Positions 3,088 to 13,187 of a DNA stretch of 56,351 nucleotides are shown one piece after another; position 1 is the first letter of the stretch; every line of letters begins with the position of its first letter. Made by a program: the position numbers and the translations under genes. The DNA is taken from the NCBI GenBank assembly GCA_900553405.1, contig USDF01000002.1, positions 1-56,351 of the forward strand. Reading direction: 5' to 3'. The DNA is from an uncultured Clostridium sp. Its GTDB lineage: Bacteria; Bacillota; Clostridia; TANB77; CAG-508. The notes beneath the pieces are model-generated. The model saw only the letters and a program-made list of their open reading frames with translations. It ran no database searches and was not told the DNA's origin.

Positions 3088-3662
3088 TCATATTCTATCA
3101 TTTATGGTTACTATACCATAATTTGTTATTACACCTGCATTATGAGCAGCTTCTAATAACATTTGATTCCATTGTTTTATATCTCCACGAATTACTAATC
3201 TTTTATTATATTCATCTAATTGATTAAAATAATCCGCAACTTCTTGTCTTCTAGTTTGAATCGCAAAATAAGTTTGACCTAAAGCAATTACTTCTTTTCT
3301 TGGATCTCCATTTTGTACAATTAGATAACATGCATATCTCGAAAGTTCATAATCTAGTAACTCTCTTACAGTATTACTCCCTATTTCAACCATTTTCCTG
3401 ACCTCAGGAAAATGGTCTAAATTTCAAATCCACTATTGTTACATGCCAATTTTGCTCTATCAATTACTTTAGCAAAATTTTTCCATTTCTTGTATTGTAA
3501 AACTTCACTTAGTTCTCTTGCATTCCAATATTCTGTTCCATCTTCTCTAATCTTTTTTATTTCTTCAAAATTTTTGTATTCTTCTGCTTGTAAATTACTC
3601 AATATTATCATCTCCAATATTTTAATTTTTATAATTATATTAAACATTTGTTTGTTGTTCAA
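3088..3662 (-). pseudogene. dinD: DNA damage-inducible protein D (DinD), frameshifted and C-terminally truncated
   Basis: Two ORFs (3417..3662 and 3088..3393). The lower frame extends upstream to read LDHFPEVRKMVEIGS, which follows ...NSGFEI of the upper ORF, implying a 1-nt loss in a T run near 3420. RYACYLIVQNGDP and GQTYFAIQTRRQE are DinD hallmarks. The protein ends about 100 aa short. Confidence 0.8.
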
Positions 3663-3931: not shown

Positions 3932-4630
3932 CTAAATATGATAGAATTTGACTAGTAGGCGCCCTGATGGTAGATGGTTTGTATTCTTTATTTTCTTCAA
4001 ATTTAAAAACTCTTGTATTCCATCTTCTACAATCACACTATCTTTTTCATAATTTACTGATATTTGCTTTGATTCTTTATCATATACATATCCTAAACAT
4101 CCATTATATCCAATTAATTCGCCTCTTTTTAGTTTCATTTATAAGCCTAATTTTACATGAGAAGATATATTTTCACTTTCTTGTTGTGCCATCACACTCA
4201 TTACAGTTAACATTATTTCTCCTGATAGTTCTAAAGTATTTATGTGCTCTTCTTCAAAATATATTGTTATTCCTTTTTCTTTTAATATTCTTACATATTT
4301 TAAAGTATCTACTGTATTTCTTACAAAACTTGATATTGATATTGATTTTGTTATTATCATATCAAATTTATTGTTCGTAGCATCTTGCATCATTTTCATA
4401 AAGCCATCTCGTTTGTAGTCTAAAGTTCCTGTGATTCCTTCATCTGCATAAATTCCAACATATTTCCAATTGCTATTACTTTTGATTTTTTCTTAATAAT
4501 ACTTTAGTTGAGAATTGTAACCGTTTATTTGTTCTTCTTTTTCTGTACTTACTCTTAAATTACCTCTTATTTCTTCTCCTGTCGTTCTATTAATTCGACC
4601 TTTTTTCTTCTCTATAACTTGTACTTTCAA
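3932..4630 (-). pseudogene. Large serine recombinase (resolvase/invertase domain), dead copy
   Basis: TTG start after AGAGAGG. LRVSTEKEEQ, YVGIYADEGITGT, ITKSISISSFVRNTVDTLKY and MAQQESENISSHVKLGL match the serine recombinase catalytic domain. In-frame TAA stops at 4493-4495 and 4139-4141. The protein is truncated after about 230 aa. Confidence 0.85.
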
Positions 4631-4929
4631 ATTTAACCTCTCTTTCTCAAGTTTAGAGAATCTTTATGTGCTTATTATACATCAAAGTATTATTTTTTCA
4701 AATACCTATATGAGTTAAATTATATTCTTGTAAAATATTTTTCTTTAATTCTAAATCTCTCTCTTCTTTAATCAAATTTGCATCAAAAGTTTTGTTTAAT
4801 ATTGCTATTTTAATACTACAATTAAAGATATTTTAATTTAGTTTGATGTTTTTTGTATTATTAAAATTGATTTCGTACAACATAAAAATCCTCCTTGCTT
4901 GAATTAAATTTCAAAAAAGGCAACAAAAG

Positions 4930-4945
4930 AGCCAGCCGGCTGGCT
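4930..4945 (-). terminator. GC-rich 16-bp perfect palindrome, possible terminator
   Basis: The palindrome is agccagccggctggct. On the minus strand it is followed by cttttgttgcctttttt. It lies about 235 nt after the stop of the 666-aa gene. Confidence 0.35.
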
Positions 4946-5180
4946 TCGACTGACTTACTTTACATTTTTTGATAATCCGATTATATTATTATGTTTTTCT
5001 AAAATCAATTCCGTTTTATTTTCCTTTTTTCTATTAAATTTTTAATATTTACTAATTTATGATACTAGTTCACTGGGTGTATTTTTACATCACTTTTTTT
5101 CTCTTTGATTAATACTAGAAAGCTTGCCTTCTATGTGTGATGGCATTGCGTTAAGCATGCTATCCTGCCTTTAGTAAGAA

Positions 5181-7181
5181 TTATTTTTTCTTTATAAATT
5201 CTTCTATTGTGTTGATTAATTCTTTTGCTTCGTTAGTTACTTTTTCTTCATATTGAAAGTTTGGATCTTTGCTCCATTCTACCACACATTTATAAAATTT
5301 TAGCTTATCATATAAGAATCCATTTTTTAAAAATCCTTCTTCTCTACCAGTAATGCCTTTTAGCTGTCTCCTATTAAACTTTTTTAACAATTTATCATTT
5401 ATATACTTACCTAATTTTTGCTTTTTATATTGGTCATATTGTATATCCAAATCTTGCATTAATTCATCAGTAATTAATTCTTTCTTTATTCCCTGTTTTA
5501 TATATATTTCTATTACTTCTTTTGGAAAAAGATTTTCAACTTCTCTCACTTTTAATTTATATATATTTCTCCCTAATTTTTTAGAAAGCTTTTTAAAATT
5601 CTCGCTTTTGGCTTTTTTATCTTCTTCAAACATATTATCATCGTCTAAAATAACCATGTATTTCGGATTTATCTTTTTAGCTTTAACAATAAAATCTTTT
5701 ATTTGTTCCTCTTGATTACTCGAATTAAAATCTATTAAAGTCATATTTTTACCACCATAGGGTATAAAACAATAGTCATAATCCTCCATATACTTTTTTG
5801 AATCTTCTATATTTATGTTTTTAAGATTTAATAATAATCGGATATAAAAAGCATCATACTTTCCCTCTACCCATATTGCTTTATTAGCTATTAAAACACT
5901 ACTTGCTTCAACTCCCAATTCCTCAATAACATCATAATACTCTTCATTTTTTTCACTAATATTAATTTGATTATTTTCTTTTTTACACAAATATATTAAA
6001 CTATTTTTATTTTCTCTGTTTCCTATATCAATTAAATTATTAGAATGTGTTGATAATATGAAAACACATTTCTCAAATTCTTTAAAGTATGTAATCATAT
6101 TTATAAATAATCTTTGGAAACCTGGATGAAAATTATTTTCTGGTTCTTCGATAAAAAACATTTTATAATTATTTTTATCACATTCCATAAATATAGTGTA
6201 CATTATTATTAAGAGTGATGTAATACCATCTCCTACTTGATATATAAACTTATCTTCTTCATCATTTATATTAATTTTTAATTCAAAAGTCTCTTCATCT
6301 GGTATAATCGATACATTATCACCATTAAAAAAATTATTGGATAAAAATTTTTCAAATCTATCTACTTTTTCTCTCTTGTCTTTTGTTCCCAGTAAATTTT
6401 TCTTATAATCTTGATAAAAATTTAATCCTGTAACAATCTCAATATCACTCTCAAACTTATATTCAGAAATAATTCTCTCTTTATATATGTCTATTTTTGC
6501 TTCATCATTATATAAACTTTTGGTATCTTTTAATGGATGTCGTATATTCCTTAAAATTGGAAAATAATATCTCTTTATTTTTTCTTTTTCAGTAAGTGTA
6601 TTCATTTCAAATCCCAATTTTACTATATCTTTTTCATTTAAATTTTCTAAATTATTCACTAATTTTTCTTTTAAGTCTTTTAAAATATCCAATTTAATAC
6701 CTTTGTATTTAGGTATAATTTCTGTATCTAATTTAAATTTTTGGTTTTGCTTTATGTCCAAATAATCAAATAAAGGTTGCATTTCCTTTAAAAGCTCATG
6801 TTCATTTTCATAATCATATGATTTTTGGTTATTAGAAATATATCTTGAATTAGAATCTTTTTTTGAATCATATGCTTTATCAAGTAAAGTTATATATTTT
6901 TTATATCTTTCACTCAATGCCTTTATATTAGTATTTTCTATTCTATCCAAAAGTTCAAAATTAATTTCGTTAGATAAAATTGCCTGTTTCAAATCATTAA
7001 TTAATTCAATTTCATCATTATATATCTTAATTGCATTCATTAGCAAAAATCTTAAAAAATAACTTTTTCCACTATTATTTTTTCCCACCAGAAAATTAGT
7101 TTTATCTACCTTTAATAAATAAGTTGATTCATTATCTATATTAAATTTATCTAATATATTTTCTCCCAATAATAACCACAT
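5181..7181 (-). CDS. ABC-type (AAA_15/21-like) ATPase fused to a Toprim/DUF4435-like nuclease domain; OLD family, PARIS AriA-AriB-fusion-like
   Basis: Walker A is VGKNNSGKS and there is a long helical insertion. GDGITSLL is signature-like, Walker B is MFFIEEPENNFHP and the H-loop is LSTHS. The C-terminus has WVEGKYDAFY, MVILDDDN and REVENLFP acidic motifs. Confidence 0.65.
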   Translation of the reverse strand: MWLLLGENILDKFNIDNESTYLLKVDKTNFLVGKNNSGKSYFLRFLLMNAIKIYNDEIELINDLKQAILSNEINFELLDRIENTNIKALSERYKKYITLLDKAYDSKKDSNSRYISNNQKSYDYENEHELLKEMQPLFDYLDIKQNQKFKLDTEIIPKYKGIKLDILKDLKEKLVNNLENLNEKDIVKLGFEMNTLTEKEKIKRYYFPILRNIRHPLKDTKSLYNDEAKIDIYKERIISEYKFESDIEIVTGLNFYQDYKKNLLGTKDKREKVDRFEKFLSNNFFNGDNVSIIPDEETFELKININDEEDKFIYQVGDGITSLLIIMYTIFMECDKNNYKMFFIEEPENNFHPGFQRLFINMITYFKEFEKCVFILSTHSNNLIDIGNRENKNSLIYLCKKENNQINISEKNEEYYDVIEELGVEASSVLIANKAIWVEGKYDAFYIRLLLNLKNINIEDSKKYMEDYDYCFIPYGGKNMTLIDFNSSNQEEQIKDFIVKAKKINPKYMVILDDDNMFEEDKKAKSENFKKLSKKLGRNIYKLKVREVENLFPKEVIEIYIKQGIKKELITDELMQDLDIQYDQYKKQKLGKYINDKLLKKFNRRQLKGITGREEGFLKNGFLYDKLKFYKCVVEWSKDPNFQYEEKVTNEAKELINTIEEFIKKK

Positions 7182-7194
7182 ATTACTCTTCCTT

Positions 7195-8043
7195 TTATTT
7201 ACATTTTATTATATTTTTTATTCTTTCTAACACTTCCATCGTATCCTCATAACTAATATCTTCTGCATAACTAAACTTACTCTGATAATTCTTCCAATGT
7301 TCTTTCAAAACATCACTTTCTTTTATAACTTCCATTATCTCATCTATATGCTTTAATTTATCTATCGAATCTCTATATTCAAATTTCTTTACAATAGCTT
7401 GTCCTAGTAATCCTTTATCAAAATTTTGTTGTTGTGTAGTCCAAAGTATATAGATATCATAAAAGTCCCTTGCTCTTGTTGTATCAACATTTCTCGATAT
7501 AATTGTTTCAAATTTATCTGCTATTACAGTTTCCATATTATATGCAAGTATTTCTATAGAACGATTTTCAAACATCAAACCAAATTTATAATTTACTTCT
7601 TTAGGTACAATAACATCTCCTGTTGTTATATCTAATTTCATTGGTACAACTAATTTGTCGAATTTAGCATTTAATGAAACTCTATATCCTCCATATTCAT
7701 CTTCTTGCCTTATTTCCTTTATATTTAAAAATTCAAAATCAACTCCATCATCTAAGTTTATATTGAATATTTCATTTAATATATTTTCTAGGTTGTCTTT
7801 TTCTAAATCAAATCCTTTAATTGTTGCATCCATATCTAGTGTATTTCTCATATCTATTCCAACTATGGCTGTTATTAACATTCCGCCTTTTAATACAAAT
7901 TTATATTTGTATTTTGATACTGAAATTCTTTCCAATAGTCTTTCTAGCATATAGTTTTGTAAAATAATGTTTTCATTTACATTAACTTTTGATGACATAT
8001 TTTTTATCCAAGCTTTTAATTGTGCTCTATTTTTAGCTATCAT
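7195..8043 (-). CDS. abiEii: Nucleotidyltransferase AbiEii/AbiGii toxin family protein (DUF1814)
   Basis: 282 aa. LERLLERISVSKYKYKFVLKGGMLI...LDMD is a typical AbiEii N-terminus. The gene overlaps the upstream gene by 4 bp. Confidence 0.85.
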   Translation of the reverse strand: MIAKNRAQLKAWIKNMSSKVNVNENIILQNYMLERLLERISVSKYKYKFVLKGGMLITAIVGIDMRNTLDMDATIKGFDLEKDNLENILNEIFNINLDDGVDFEFLNIKEIRQEDEYGGYRVSLNAKFDKLVVPMKLDITTGDVIVPKEVNYKFGLMFENRSIEILAYNMETVIADKFETIISRNVDTTRARDFYDIYILWTTQQQNFDKGLLGQAIVKKFEYRDSIDKLKHIDEIMEVIKESDVLKEHWKNYQSKFSYAEDISYEDTMEVLERIKNIIKCK

Positions 8044-8633
8044 AGTAACACCTCCAAATATTTTCTTATTTCATCTTCTATATTAAATAATTTTGCATAT
8101 TTGTGTAATCTAATTGAGTTTCTATCTTTTCTTTCTGCATATCTTTTCATCGCATCTGTAAATAAGGCTATTTCGATTCTCTTTTTATTTCTAATAATAT
8201 CACAAATTGTTCTTTCTAAATCATATACTCTTATTTTGTTTCCGTACGGTGTTATCATTTCTGTTATACCAACTTCATACAATTCTTCTTTTAAATAAAA
8301 GAAATCATAATTTTTATTTTTTATAAGTGTATGATTATAATAACTTGGTATAGTTAATTGATATTTTATTGGTGTTCTATCACACAAGTCATGAAAATAT
8401 AAAGCGGTTTCATGCGAGAATATTCCTTTTTTACAAATAGCTTGTGTAATAAAATATTTATCTTCTAATGTATCAGTACTTATATAAATTCCTCTTGCAA
8501 CTCTTTCTATTATTCCTTTTTCTATCATCCTTGTTAAAACTCTGCTATTAATTCCTATTTTTTCAACCTCACTTGTTGTTATAATTCCATTATTCTTTTT
8601 TAATAATTTTTCAATTCTTTCTATATTATCCAT
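8040..8633 (-). CDS. abiEi: Type IV TA system AbiEi family antitoxin (wHTH transcriptional regulator)
   Basis: 197 aa. The N-terminus reads GIITTSEVEKIGINSRVLTRMIEKGIIERVARGIY, a wHTH. The position immediately 5' of abiEii is as expected. Confidence 0.85.
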   Translation of the reverse strand: MDNIERIEKLLKKNNGIITTSEVEKIGINSRVLTRMIEKGIIERVARGIYISTDTLEDKYFITQAICKKGIFSHETALYFHDLCDRTPIKYQLTIPSYYNHTLIKNKNYDFFYLKEELYEVGITEMITPYGNKIRVYDLERTICDIIRNKKRIEIALFTDAMKRYAERKDRNSIRLHKYAKLFNIEDEIRKYLEVLL

Positions 8634-8645
8634 CTTTCTTCTCCT

Positions 8646-8695
8646 TTGTCGGAAACTCTCGTAAATATTATATCATTTACGAGAGTTTCCGACAA
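8646..8695 (-). promoter_or_regulatory. abiE promoter embedded in a 21-bp perfect inverted repeat (putative AbiEi operator)
   Basis: ttgtcggaaactctcgtaaat (8646-8666) pairs with atttacgagagtttccgacaa (8675-8695). The 8-nt spacer reads gatataat on the minus strand, giving TATAAT. TTGTCG lies 17 nt upstream inside the distal arm. Confidence 0.6.
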
Positions 8696-8846
8696 GCATT
8701 TATATAAAATTTGTTAAAAAATATTGCTTTATAATAAAGTTTCTATTATATTTAATTAGATGACTGAGAAGACTTACTTCGGTAAGCAGTTATGATTTAG
8801 AATGTAGCTTATATAGAAATATATAAGCTATAGTTTTTATTATTAA

Positions 8847-8885
8847 AATTGCCGTTTTCATTATTTACGAATGAAAACGGCAATT
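8847..8885 (-). terminator. Stem-loop terminator after the hydrolase gene
   Basis: 16-bp arms aattgccgttttcatt / aatgaaaacggcaatt with a 7-nt loop, directly after the stop at 8889. Confidence 0.6.
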
Positions 8886-8888
8886 AAC

Positions 8889-9440
8889 TTATAAATAACT
8901 AACTATATCTTCAAATGTATCATATCCACTTTCACTATTGATATGTCCGCCATTATGTATTAAAACTTGTTCTGTTGCAACTGTATTAGCAAATTCTTTT
9001 TCTACTTCATATCTTACATATGGATCATTATCTGAGTAGAAACAAATTATCTCATTAGCATATGGTTTTACATCTTCCAAGTTATCAAAATACATTGATT
9101 TATTAACATTATCGTATTCTTCATTTATACCTAGATAATTATTAAATCCACATACGAATATTAACTTCTTAACTTTCACTTTATTTTCAACTAGAAATTT
9201 TGATATTAATATTGGTGCAATACTATGTCCTATAATTGTTGTATTTTCATTTATAAGACCTAAATCTAAATAATATTTTAACAACTTACTCCAATTTTCA
9301 TAATTTTGATATCCTACTCCAATTGGAAAATCTGGTACATATACTTGTTTGCCATCTGTTGCTATAAAATCTTGTAACCAACTAAACCAATTTCCAAATG
9401 GGCTTCCAAACGAACCATGTATTATAAAATAATTTTCCAT
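8889..9440 (-). CDS. Alpha/beta serine hydrolase, YdeN/RBBP9-like
   Basis: 183 aa. FIIHGSFGSP at the N-terminus, a GHS nucleophile motif (IIGHSIA), and C-terminal D and H residues. Confidence 0.65.
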   Translation of the reverse strand: MENYFIIHGSFGSPFGNWFSWLQDFIATDGKQVYVPDFPIGVGYQNYENWSKLLKYYLDLGLINENTTIIGHSIAPILISKFLVENKVKVKKLIFVCGFNNYLGINEEYDNVNKSMYFDNLEDVKPYANEIICFYSDNDPYVRYEVEKEFANTVATEQVLIHNGGHINSESGYDTFEDIVSYL

Positions 9441-11080: not shown

Positions 11081-11620
11081 TTATTTCTCCCTTAAATTAT
11101 ATTTATTAATATTATCTATTGTAGCAAAACCATTATGTTCTTTTACCTTTTCAAGAAATACAATTTCCTCTAAGTGATCACATTCATGTTGTACTAACCT
11201 TGCAAAAAATCCATGCAATTGTTTTATTATTTGATTACCATTTTCATCACAATATGTTAATTCTACATCTTTATATCTCTCTACTTTACCTCTAATACTA
11301 GGGACACTCATACATCCTTCATATTGTATATCTGTTTCTTTTGATATTTCTCTCCAAGTAGGATTTATCATTGCTGTTACAGGATTTTCTTCTGCATCAT
11401 TATATTTAATATTTTCTTTTTTAGCACCTACTACAATTATTCTCTTATTTATACCTATTTGTGGTGCAGCAATTCCTACTCCAGTACCAAATTCTAATGT
11501 TGACTTTAAATCTTCTATGATGTCTAATATTTCTTTAGTTATATTTTTTATATCTACTTCATCACATTCTTTTTCAAGAACAGGGTCTCCCACTTCTCTT
11601 ATTTTTAAAACTTTCCCCAT
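11081..11620 (-). CDS. def: Peptide deformylase
   Basis: GVGIAAPQIG, EGCMSVP and HECDHL motifs are all present. Confidence 0.9.
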   Translation of the reverse strand: MGKVLKIREVGDPVLEKECDEVDIKNITKEILDIIEDLKSTLEFGTGVGIAAPQIGINKRIIVVGAKKENIKYNDAEENPVTAMINPTWREISKETDIQYEGCMSVPSIRGKVERYKDVELTYCDENGNQIIKQLHGFFARLVQHECDHLEEIVFLEKVKEHNGFATIDNINKYNLREK

Positions 11621-11816
11621 ATTTTCCTACTTTCTTACTCATATTTTCCAGTATTTCAAGGATTTTGCTCAATTTTCTAAAAAATATTTTATGTGTTTCC
11701 ACTTACCACTTAAGCAATTACTCTAACTTTCACACCCAAATTTTGATGTTCTTCTTTACCAAATCTGCCTTTTTGTTCAAAAGTTATAATCTCTGAAACC
11801 ATATCAAAATCAAGTA

Positions 11817-13187
11817 TTACATGTCTTGTTTTAGTTGTAGCACTGACACGCACTCCACATGGCTTGTAAACGGAAACATATCTACTGGTTGTATATTACC
11901 TATTTCATAATTTTCATTAAGTAACTTCATATCTCTTACCATAGTTGCAGGATTACAACTAATATAAACTACCTTTTTAGGCTTAACCGCTAAAATATTG
12001 TTAATTGTATTGTTGTCTAATCCCTTACGTGGAGGATCTACTATTATTACATCAGGATAAACTTGTTTCTTTTCCATTAAATTAGAAAATATTTTTTCTA
12101 CATCTCCTGCAAAAAATTCTATATTTTCAATATTATTTATCTTCGCATTTTCTTTTGCATCTTCAATTGCTTGCTCTACAATTTCTATTCCATAAACTTT
12201 TTTTACATAGCTTGAAGCAAAAATTCCTATTGTTCCAATTCCACAATATAAATCAAATAATACATCATCTTTGCTTAAGCCTGCCATTTCAATTGCTGTA
12301 TTGTATAAAACTTCTGCTTGTACTGGGTTTACTTGGTAGAATGACATTGGAGAGATTTTAAATGTATAATCTCCTAATATATCATAAATATATCCATCTC
12401 CATGAAGAACTACATTTTCATATCCTAGTATTACATTTGTGTTTTTCATATTTATATTTTTTACAATTGTTTTTACATTGTATTGTCTTACAAGCATTTC
12501 AACAAGTTCTGTTTCATACGGTATTTTTTTGCCATTTACAACTAATATACACATTATTTCGTGTGTACGAATTCCTACTTTTATTACAATATGGCGAATT
12601 AGCCCCTCTAATGCCTCTTCATTATATACTGGTATATTTTTTTCTATTATAAATTTTTGAATAGAAAATGCTATTTTTTGTGTTTCTATATTTTGAATAA
12701 AACATTCTTTTATTCCTATAATTTCATGTGTTCTTTGTGCAAAGACTCCTACTTGTATTTCGCCTTGTTTATTTAGTCCTACTGGAAATTGAGCTTTATT
12801 TCTATAATTATATGGATTGCCCATTCCTATTGTTTTTTCTACTTTTATATTAGCTCCATTAAAGGTTTTGCTCACTAAATTCTGTACATTTTTTTGTTTT
12901 ATATTTAATGTTTCTTCATAATCAATATGTCTTAAATCACAGCCACCACATCTTTTGTATGTACTGCAATCTTCTTCCACTCTAAAAGGAGATTTTTCTA
13001 GTATTTCTACTACTTTTCCATATCCATAAGAAGAAAGTACTTTCACTATAATTATTTTTACTTTTTCGCCTTTCATGGCATACGGAATAAATATGGTGAA
13101 ATCATTTATTTTAGCAATGCCTTCTCCATTCATTCCATAATCTATAATGTCTACAATATATTCTTCATTCTTTTTTATTTTTTCCAT
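11817..13187 (-). CDS. rlmD: 23S rRNA (uracil-5-)-methyltransferase, RumA/RlmD family (TRAM + Fe-S + SAM MTase)
   Basis: N-terminal TRAM domain, a C..C..CGGC cluster, DLYCGIGT SAM motif and DPPRKG. Confidence 0.85.
   Translation of the reverse strand: MEKIKKNEEYIVDIIDYGMNGEGIAKINDFTIFIPYAMKGEKVKIIIVKVLSSYGYGKVVEILEKSPFRVEEDCSTYKRCGGCDLRHIDYEETLNIKQKNVQNLVSKTFNGANIKVEKTIGMGNPYNYRNKAQFPVGLNKQGEIQVGVFAQRTHEIIGIKECFIQNIETQKIAFSIQKFIIEKNIPVYNEEALEGLIRHIVIKVGIRTHEIMCILVVNGKKIPYETELVEMLVRQYNVKTIVKNINMKNTNVILGYENVVLHGDGYIYDILGDYTFKISPMSFYQVNPVQAEVLYNTAIEMAGLSKDDVLFDLYCGIGTIGIFASSYVKKVYGIEIVEQAIEDAKENAKINNIENIEFFAGDVEKIFSNLMEKKQVYPDVIIVDPPRKGLDNNTINNILAVKPKKVVYISCNPATMVRDMKLLNENYEIGNIQPVDMFPFTSHVECVSVLQLKQDM

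Follow-up and report, generated by a model that had tools for sequence, protein, structure and literature searches.

AbiE systems, as described in Lactococcus lactis and Streptococcus agalactiae, combine a winged helix-turn-helix (wHTH) antitoxin and repressor with a DUF1814 nucleotidyltransferase toxin, the genes overlapping with the antitoxin first and an inverted-repeat operator lying over the promoter. AbiEi of S. agalactiae both counteracts the toxin and acts as repressor of the operon; nucleotide transfer to tRNA is the activity of AbiEii homologs; and AbiE has been reported to stabilise plasmids (PMC13064643). In the OLD family of ATPase-Toprim nucleases, P2 Old reportedly responds to DNA that is aberrant or forms hairpins and cuts tRNA, while the Thermus scotoductus protein (TsOLD) degrades DNA (PMC7049728; PMC10568477; bioRxiv 10.64898/2026.07.10.737580), and AriB of PARIS has been reported to cleave tRNA like P2 Old (PMC13064643; bioRxiv 10.64898/2026.07.10.737580). 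The locus analysed here joins members of both kinds and lies in a stretch of 56,351 nucleotides (nt) from an uncultured Clostridium sp. (contig USDF01000002.1, positions 1 to 56,351), hereafter the window, which is AT-rich with a GC content of ~26%. An AbiE pair with the same two protein types, gene overlap and inverted repeat over the promoter is followed there by the gene of a 666-amino acid (aa) OLD-family protein. The described AbiE systems are bicistronic, whereas here an unrelated third defence gene follows after a 13-nt gap with no terminator.

The initial annotation of this DNA knew of no described partnership between AbiE and such a nuclease, and the literature searched indeed holds no AbiE-OLD nuclease pairing. 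The evidence points to an arrangement that is undescribed, yet is a lineage-specific chimera of two known kinds and not a new system. The reading favoured here, which is considered moderately probable, is that two autonomous anti-phage modules were recombined end to end on a now-decayed serine-recombinase element and are read from one AbiEi-repressed promoter. Gene identities, motif conservation, layout, the separate occurrence of the modules and the position of their junction were computed in this analysis.

Locus layout and the junction of the two modules

The following features of the window, given in the direction of transcription, define the locus:

8646 to 8695, minus strand: abiE promoter and presumed operator, a 21-nt inverted repeat over the -35 and -10 elements
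8040 to 8633, minus strand: abiEi, predicted type IV antitoxin and transcriptional repressor (197 aa) with an N-terminal wHTH and a C-terminal antitoxin domain
7195 to 8043, minus strand: abiEii, predicted DUF1814 nucleotidyltransferase toxin (282 aa)
7208 to 7225, minus strand: splice point in the last codons of abiEii, placed by blastn end points and an anchored alignment
5181 to 7181, minus strand: OLD-family nuclease gene (666 aa) with its own AAGGAAG ribosome-binding site (RBS)
4930 to 4955, minus strand: intrinsic terminator-like hairpin with a 9-bp stem, 5 GC pairs and a T tract, the first downstream of the abiE promoter

Profile matches identified the first two genes as a canonical AbiE pair, in agreement with the initial annotation. 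AbiEi matched Pfam AbiEi_4 (PF13338; 8.6e-12 over aa 5-51) and the full-length PADLOC AbiEi model (1.9e-71 over aa 1-196), and AbiEii matched PF08843 (3.7e-36 over aa 35-266) and the full-length PADLOC AbiEii model (7e-97). The inverted repeat upstream of abiEi was 100% complementary, with arms at 8646-8666 and 8675-8695 enclosing a -35 element TTGTCG (8695-8690) and a TG-extended -10 element TATAAT (8672-8667). Among the homologous loci recovered for comparison (numbered L001 onwards), the arms co-varied and stayed complementary between the window, L003/L143/L145 and L158, with the pair ACTCTC/GAGAGT of the window corresponding to ATCTTC/GAAGAT in L003 and the pair GTCGGAAA/TTTCCGAC to GCCGGGAA/TTCCCGGC in L158. 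The repeat is presumed to be the AbiEi binding site for negative autoregulation, because AbiE of S. agalactiae is autoregulated (PMC13064643).

Both coding junctions are tight, as abiEi and abiEii overlap by 4 bp (8040-8043) and 13 nt (7194-7182, 'aaggaagagtaat'), including the RBS AAGGAAG, separate the abiEii stop from the ATG of the third gene; these coordinates and spacings, the RBS and the promoter palindrome were all as first annotated. In a scan of the minus strand from 4700 to 9000, no terminator-like hairpin was found between the three genes and the sole one detected was that at 4955-4930, ~225 nt past the stop of the third gene. RNA folding of the 3' untranslated region (4900-5185) gave nothing besides this terminator (z = -1.1), and Rfam identified only two tRNAs in the whole window. 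The layout as one transcription unit therefore held, and from the overlap, the short gap and the uninterrupted reading between the genes we infer that the three genes are most likely co-transcribed from the abiE promoter.

The boundary between the modules was resolved by comparison with loci that carry only one of them. Homology to an AbiE-only cassette (L158) extended over window positions 8715 to 7225, and homology to loci with OLD only began at 7216 (L001) or 7214 (L012), so that the modules meet within ~10 nt, inside the last abiEii codons. The C-terminus of AbiEii is consequently encoded by sequence that elsewhere constitutes the OLD leader, and the OLD gene has lost its own upstream region and is thus most likely read through from the AbiE promoter.

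At 7213-7208, 27-32 nt before the OLD ATG, the window has a TATAAT box in common with the OLD leader of L001, which is not preceded by abiE; the box may be a relic of a -10 element. Its conservation speaks for mere neighbours with separate transcripts, in which case there would be no operon and a weak promoter retained within the 3' part of abiEii would express the nuclease. This is quite improbable, as the box has no acceptable -35 or extended -10 and was unlisted in the promoter scan, promoter-like matches in this AT-rich region were at or below chance (30 found versus 36.6 expected), and no terminator separates the genes; at best, the box may act as a weak promoter without a -35.

Distribution of the AbiE-OLD join

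Approximately 10 independent genomic contexts containing full-length OLD homologs of 41-77% identity were sampled, and a genome-contig scan with the single 666-aa sequence returned 2 loci. An AbiEi-AbiEii pair directly upstream of OLD (1-17 nt gap) was found only at 74-77% identity, namely in L003/L004, L143/L144 and L145, and was absent from this position in nine other contexts (41-71% identity). Together with the window these loci form one block of 82-84% nt identity (window 8761-4042), which begins ~70-130 nt before the abiE promoter and ends within a recombinase gene, and the flank upstream of the block in L003 is unlike that of the window. Because all the AbiE-OLD joins lie on this one block, it is read as a single mobile element lineage and a single evolutionary event.

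No AbiE was present within the flanks examined for OLD homologs at 71, 63, 52, 49, 48, 47 and 41% identity. The gene order in L001 (71%) was Type I HsdR, a 403-aa open reading frame (ORF), a large serine recombinase and OLD, and in L012 (63%) it was OLD, a 71-aa ORF and a serine recombinase, both without AbiE. The homologs at 52-41% sit among Type I/III restriction-modification, GmrSD, SIR2, KAP NTPase and MmeI genes, with further neighbours of the distant members including CoiA/NOV_C, a Ppl-like ATPase, SLFN-AlbA, MutH/Dcm, a Hachiman-type HamA plus helicase, a DEDDh exonuclease and AAA_13. The immediate neighbours of OLD, at gaps of 3-41 nt, were single-gene PADLOC candidates (PDC-S53, E = 0; PDC-S48; PDC-S06; PDC-S32), so that tight co-directional packing of unrelated systems is normal in these islands and gives no evidence of a shared system. 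One such neighbour, a 912-aa superfamily 1 helicase that matches PDC-S53 end to end at a 41-nt gap (L146-L150, 5001-9793), gives the locus a superficially Gabija-like appearance; in L157 (5428-9333) OLD is accompanied by a DEDDh exonuclease and an AAA_13 protein, with gaps of 3 and 9 nt, respectively.

Beyond these contexts, scans of the JGI metagenomes and IMG/VR returned only OLD relatives of at most 34% identity, and the plasmid and phage collections only distant relatives of the OLD protein. A local hidden Markov model (HMM) search with three AbiE subfamilies found an AbiE gene in 0 of 127 loci of the more distant OLD relatives, these loci being from other taxa. A near-identical relative shows the nuclease gene being lost, to judge from its alignment: positions 1-1201 of L002, from a metagenome-assembled genome of Hadza-gut Clostridia, correspond to window 7481-6184 at 97-98% identity, and the OLD gene is disrupted there by an 85-nt deletion (window 6731-6646), with homology lost at 6184 and an 865-aa ORF without a Pfam match following.

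Several observations weigh against the favoured reading of two independent modules. The junction is tight (1-17 nt) and has been kept in four contexts (the window, L003/L004, L143/L144 and L145), and two OLD homologs, of 51 and 50% identity, are accompanied by AbiE downstream rather than upstream, 3 kb away in L146-L149 and 0.85 kb away in L014, with another gene between in each. AbiE was therefore near OLD in 3 of the ~10 independent contexts, a proportion that seems higher than a random pair would give but is tempered by the extreme abundance of AbiE in gut Clostridia. The L146 pair is 40-44% identical to that of the window, and the L014 pair is ~21% identical and of a different subfamily, which indicates independent acquisitions. 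This recurrence within 3 kb is a weaker association that may reflect a looser link, functional or regulatory, between AbiE and OLD.

The same observations bear on whether the locus is a true three-component system in which AbiE and OLD are interdependent, for instance with AbiEi restraining OLD or AbiEii-modified tRNA serving as the OLD substrate. The tight and conserved join with no terminator between the genes, the recurrence of AbiE near two other OLD branches, and the action of AbiEii homologs on tRNA beside the tRNA cleavage reported for P2 Old and PARIS AriB would all agree with it. Such interdependence is nevertheless very improbable, given that AbiE is missing beside the nearest OLD homologs beyond this clade (71 and 63%) and beside most others, near-identical AbiE pairs occur without OLD, order and spacing differ in L014 and L146, where another gene intervenes, and OLD is disrupted in the otherwise 97-98% identical L002. 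The 'three-gene defence module' of the initial annotation accordingly did not hold, the direct join being confined to the lineage at 74% identity or above and the AbiE cassette carrying other cargo elsewhere. The survey of homolog neighbourhoods that it had proposed largely favoured chance adjacency, although two more branches with an AbiE pair no further than 3 kb from OLD stand on the opposite side.

The AbiE cassette was far more abundant than the nuclease. Over 7,665 homologs of the window AbiEii were found, with the best 120 clusters all at least 84% identical, compared to five or six clusters at 72% or above for the OLD protein; a scan of viral contigs with AbiEii gave no match. The AbiEii homolog P0179, 88% identical to that of the window, was listed in 271 index blocks, and in 8 of the 8 places shown an unrelated 61-aa ORF lay 12 nt beyond its AbiEi-AbiEii pair, with the gene of a 941-aa PIN-TPR-GreABC protein next. 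The site of this cassette, downstream of Ribonuc_L-PSP/His_Phos_1 genes, is the same as that of the OLD-linked L003. In L158-L165 (e.g. L158, 3411-7875), which carry this cassette, the 61-aa ORF lies 5 nt from the 941-aa PIN-TPR-GreABC gene (PF20698), which had no PADLOC match. In a Vescimonas replicon the AbiE pair (47% identity) is followed by a co-directional 130-aa ORF and a PLD-like gene, and the plasmid AbiE pairs (41% identity) are simple bicistrons, the gene after them running on the opposite strand. That the chromosomal site shared by L158 and L003 holds different genes after the AbiE pair suggests a slot for variable cargo directly 3' of abiEii.

The slot could have been selected as such, with AbiE a portable, self-repressing expression and addiction platform and effectors docked 3' of abiEii, the coupling being regulatory rather than biochemical. 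A dangerous effector would thereby be placed under AbiEi-controlled, infection-responsive transcription and stabilised on a mobile element. The occurrence of the same cassette at the same chromosomal site with different cargo at 1-13 nt spacing would fit, as would the co-directional genes of the Vescimonas replicon, the upstream region lost by OLD at the join and the reported stabilisation of plasmids by AbiE (PMC13064643). A platform of this kind appears unlikely, however, as only three cargo types in a handful of contexts were found, other AbiE pairs have no same-strand gene downstream, closely packed but unrelated genes are the rule in these islands, and the residual TATAAT at 7213-7208 could drive OLD separately.

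The 666-aa protein among OLD-family nucleases

The third gene of the chimera encodes, all on the minus strand of the window:

6027 to 7109, minus strand: ABC ATPase domain (aa 25-385), delimited by Pfam, invariant motifs and the secondary structure of an AlphaFold 2 (AF2) model
5523 to 5894, minus strand: divergent Toprim core (aa 430-553) with a predicted beta-alpha-beta-alpha-beta-alpha-beta topology and the metal-site motifs
5184 to 5522, minus strand: helical domain at the C-terminus (aa 554-666), with the invariant K626 and a match to the C-terminal part of PDC-M55B

The N-terminal half matched Pfam AAA_15 (9.8e-18) and AAA_21 (8.9e-17), both above the cutoff, and the PADLOC ATPase models AriA/PtuA/GajA at 1e-17 to 1e-12. 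Pfam describes AAA_21 as a 'putative AbiEii toxin', a confusing label at this locus as the real AbiEii (PF08843) is the adjacent gene. The motifs quoted in the initial annotation were present and fell on invariant alignment columns, comprising Walker A GKNNSGKS (aa 33-40, G33 to S40, with K39 and S40 invariant), a signature-like GDGITS (aa 317-322, with G317 and G319 on invariant columns), Walker B/D-loop FFIEEPE (aa 342-348, with E346-P347-E348 invariant) and H-loop STHS (aa 377-380, with T378-H379-S380 invariant). In the AF2 model, built on the family alignment (predicted local distance difference test score, pLDDT, 84.3; predicted template modelling score, pTM, 0.78), a long helical insert separates the ATPase lobes at ~aa 57-195, in the position of the dimerisation domain of OLD proteins. 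The closest solved structure by sequence was TsOLD (6P74), whose E-value was 2.8e-4 for the single sequence and fell to 4.6e-12 when a family profile of 50 members was used, and a Foldseek search of the Protein Data Bank (PDB) with the full model was headed by the retron-Eco8 OLD effector, TsOLD, PtuA and GajA. The best structural matches in BFVD were giant-virus 'ATP-dependent endonucleases'.

The Toprim assignment of the C-terminal half was made because its invariant residues reproduce the two-metal pattern of OLD proteins. W437, E439, G440 and D443 (WVEGKYD), D513 and D515 (DDD), E547, E549 and N550 (EVEN) and K626 were invariant, giving the metal-site motifs E439-x3-D443, D513-x-D515 and E547-x-E549, with an insert of low confidence at aa 479-504 of the Toprim in the AF2 model. 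The phmmer alignment to 6P74 placed E439/D443 on E377/D381 of TsOLD, which are validated metal ligands (PMC7049728). In the OLD pattern, metal A is bound by an E and a DxD and metal B by a D/E four residues further on and an x-x-E, with a K/R in addition. The two-metal sites defined by experiment in OLD proteins are E377/D431/D433 and D381/S478/E480 in Ts, E398/D453/D455 and E402/D541/E543 in P2, and E400/D455/D457 and E404/T506/E508 plus K562 in Bp (PMC7049728). K626 is taken to be analogous to K562 of Bp OLD by its position in the helical domain.

Profile methods recovered this half poorly. Pfam OLD-like_TOPRIM (PF20469) scored 15.7 bits against a 23.2-bit cutoff (E 0.022), a weak signal of this kind, always below threshold, came up in 20 out of 26 relatives and in 26 out of 76, and no above-threshold Toprim was obtained with Pfam on 76 family representatives plus 10 more distant relatives or in a PDB search with a second OLD protein (from L009). 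DUF4435 had no match in the 666-aa protein even at E <= 10, and a C-half profile against PDB sequences returned nothing at E <= 10. A separate model of the C-half (pLDDT 80) had GajA structures first in Foldseek at non-significant E-values of 0.17-1.1, and PADLOC PDC-M55B matched aa 508-661 (2.1e-5). The ABC ATPase plus Toprim fusion proposed by the initial annotation was thus borne out by the Pfam and PADLOC ATPase matches, the TsOLD alignment, the invariant motifs and Foldseek, and its 'DUF4435/PARIS-like' label was not, given the lack of a DUF4435 match and the sub-threshold OLD-like_TOPRIM score. On these sequence features, the analysis places the protein among the OLD-family ATPase-Toprim nucleases, in a branch that is divergent and uncharacterised, with a predicted nuclease activity. 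The C-half profile recovered 3,740 clusters at 50% identity, nearly all 600-690-aa fusions, with a few stand-alone relatives of 277-306 aa. Proteins of this family are annotated merely as 'AAA family ATPase', as the Pfam Toprim model stays below threshold.

The protein was compared with each OLD class. It shares with Class 1 (P2 Old and TsOLD) a single polypeptide of ABC ATPase, predicted helical insert and Toprim, the lack of a helicase or reverse transcriptase (RT) partner, and the E-x3-D / D-x-D / x-x-E pattern (PMC7049728); no partner is conserved, the neighbours differing in each of the ~10 independent contexts, as expected of this class. It differs in being ~80-140 aa longer than P2 Old or TsOLD, in a C-terminal helical domain that TsOLD does not have, in a Toprim too divergent for the Pfam threshold, and in its setting, as Class 1 genes are described as isolated and outside defence islands (PMC10568477), whereas the 666-aa family lives in dense islands. 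P2 Old itself was undetected by tblastn in the phage collection at 1e-8. With Class 2, represented by GajA of Gabija, the protein shares a Toprim followed by a helical domain with a conserved lysine, and this Class 2 (Bp/GajA) arrangement is probably why GajA rather than TsOLD tops the C-half search (at E >= 0.17, not significant); GajA HMMs matched aa 322-480.

The partnered classes were considered and rejected. For Gabija, no gene of the UvrD-like helicase GajB adjoins in the window, the genes flanking 5181-7181 being abiEii and recombinase remnants. For retrons (Class 3), no RT was found in the adjacent ORFs scanned against Pfam, and Rfam gave only the tRNAs mentioned above. For PARIS (Class 4), there is a single fused ORF with no DUF4435 at the permissive threshold, and the AriA models match the ATPase. 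The split ATPase plus Toprim pairs PARIS, AbiL and PDC-M55 resemble the protein in the matches of AriA (1.2e-17) and PDC-M55A (4.7e-7) to its ATPase and of PDC-M55B to its C-terminal part, and differ in that the 666-aa protein is fused and the scores are too weak for membership; PDC-M55 is undiscussed in the literature searched.

Mobile element, proposed mechanism and implications

Downstream of the OLD gene, the window carries the remains of the element on which the chimera is proposed to have formed:

4701 to 4883, minus strand: 61-aa ORF, here a pseudogene interrupted by a stop at codon 17; its counterparts accompany the recombinase in L003 and L143
4031 to 4630, minus strand: serine recombinase remnant, residues 1-204 of the 579-aa intact L003 homolog, with in-frame stops

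These remains agree with the dead serine recombinase and the defence-island context of the initial annotation, and mark the setting as a decayed island, mobile or defensive. Within the remnant, homology to the mobile block is lost at ~4042. The closest OLD homologs (63-77%) always adjoin a large serine recombinase in varying order (OLD-orf-Rec or Rec-OLD), the stretches concerned being 4031-4883 in the window, where both the recombinase and its 61-aa companion are pseudogenes, 4118-5917 in L001, 5425-6999 in L012 and 7727-9466 in L003. This constant company suggests that the nuclease travels as cargo of serine-recombinase elements. The spacer between OLD and orf61 in L003 (~7100-7300) contains at least 4 copies of a CAC(T/C)NNGTG(A/T)ACT-like motif, of which one occurs in the window (~5068-5055); these repeats may be recombinase or excisionase binding sites. 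Further along the window, several short ORFs at 3088-3662 adjoin the recombinase remnant, one of them a Bro-N fragment (3417-3662, E 3e-4), as would fit additional decayed genes of phages or mobile elements beyond the block. An intergenic segment at 11638-11861, between a 456-aa ORF (11817-13187) and a 179-aa ORF (11081-11620), is 89% identical to two intergenic sites of L003 (254-477 and 11126-11232), single-copy in the window and without an Rfam match.

By analogy with characterised homologs, we infer the biochemical activities of the two modules and their independence of action as follows. AbiEi would repress the promoter via the 21-nt inverted repeat and neutralise AbiEii, a nucleotidyltransferase that would modify tRNA and arrest growth when released. 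As in P2 Old and TsOLD, the OLD ABC ATPase, as a dimer or tetramer, would detect a sign of infection, for example aberrant DNA, and thereby license the two-metal Toprim nuclease to cut DNA or tRNA, with the infection aborted. The join would have deleted the OLD upstream region, leaving the nuclease gene to be read through from the AbiEi-repressed promoter, and the two modules would otherwise act independently.

Closer integration was also envisaged, with AbiE as a mobile driver for interchangeable effectors (OLD, PIN-TPR-GreABC and PLD-like) or with AbiEii and the OLD Toprim cooperating on the tRNA pool, which is rated as distinctly unlikely. If the driver reading were true, the 3' end of abiEii would be a recombination-prone site providing AbiEi-gated transcription and toxin-antitoxin-mediated retention of cargo. 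Under either the driver or the tRNA reading, AbiE plus cargo would be a previously unrecognised multi-gene architecture that extends the two-gene AbiE paradigm.

If the modules are independent, as in the favoured chimera, the locus would be a clean, base-pair-resolved example of defence-island assembly, in which two modules were joined within ~10 nt and one promoter was lost. It would also serve as a warning that tight spacing is no evidence of a system in these genomes. The nuclease belongs to a large OLD-like branch (the 3,740 clusters above) that is missed by the Pfam Toprim models and has no known defence phenotype, and the branch is relevant to whether broad defence against phages is provided by stand-alone (Class 1-like) OLD proteins.

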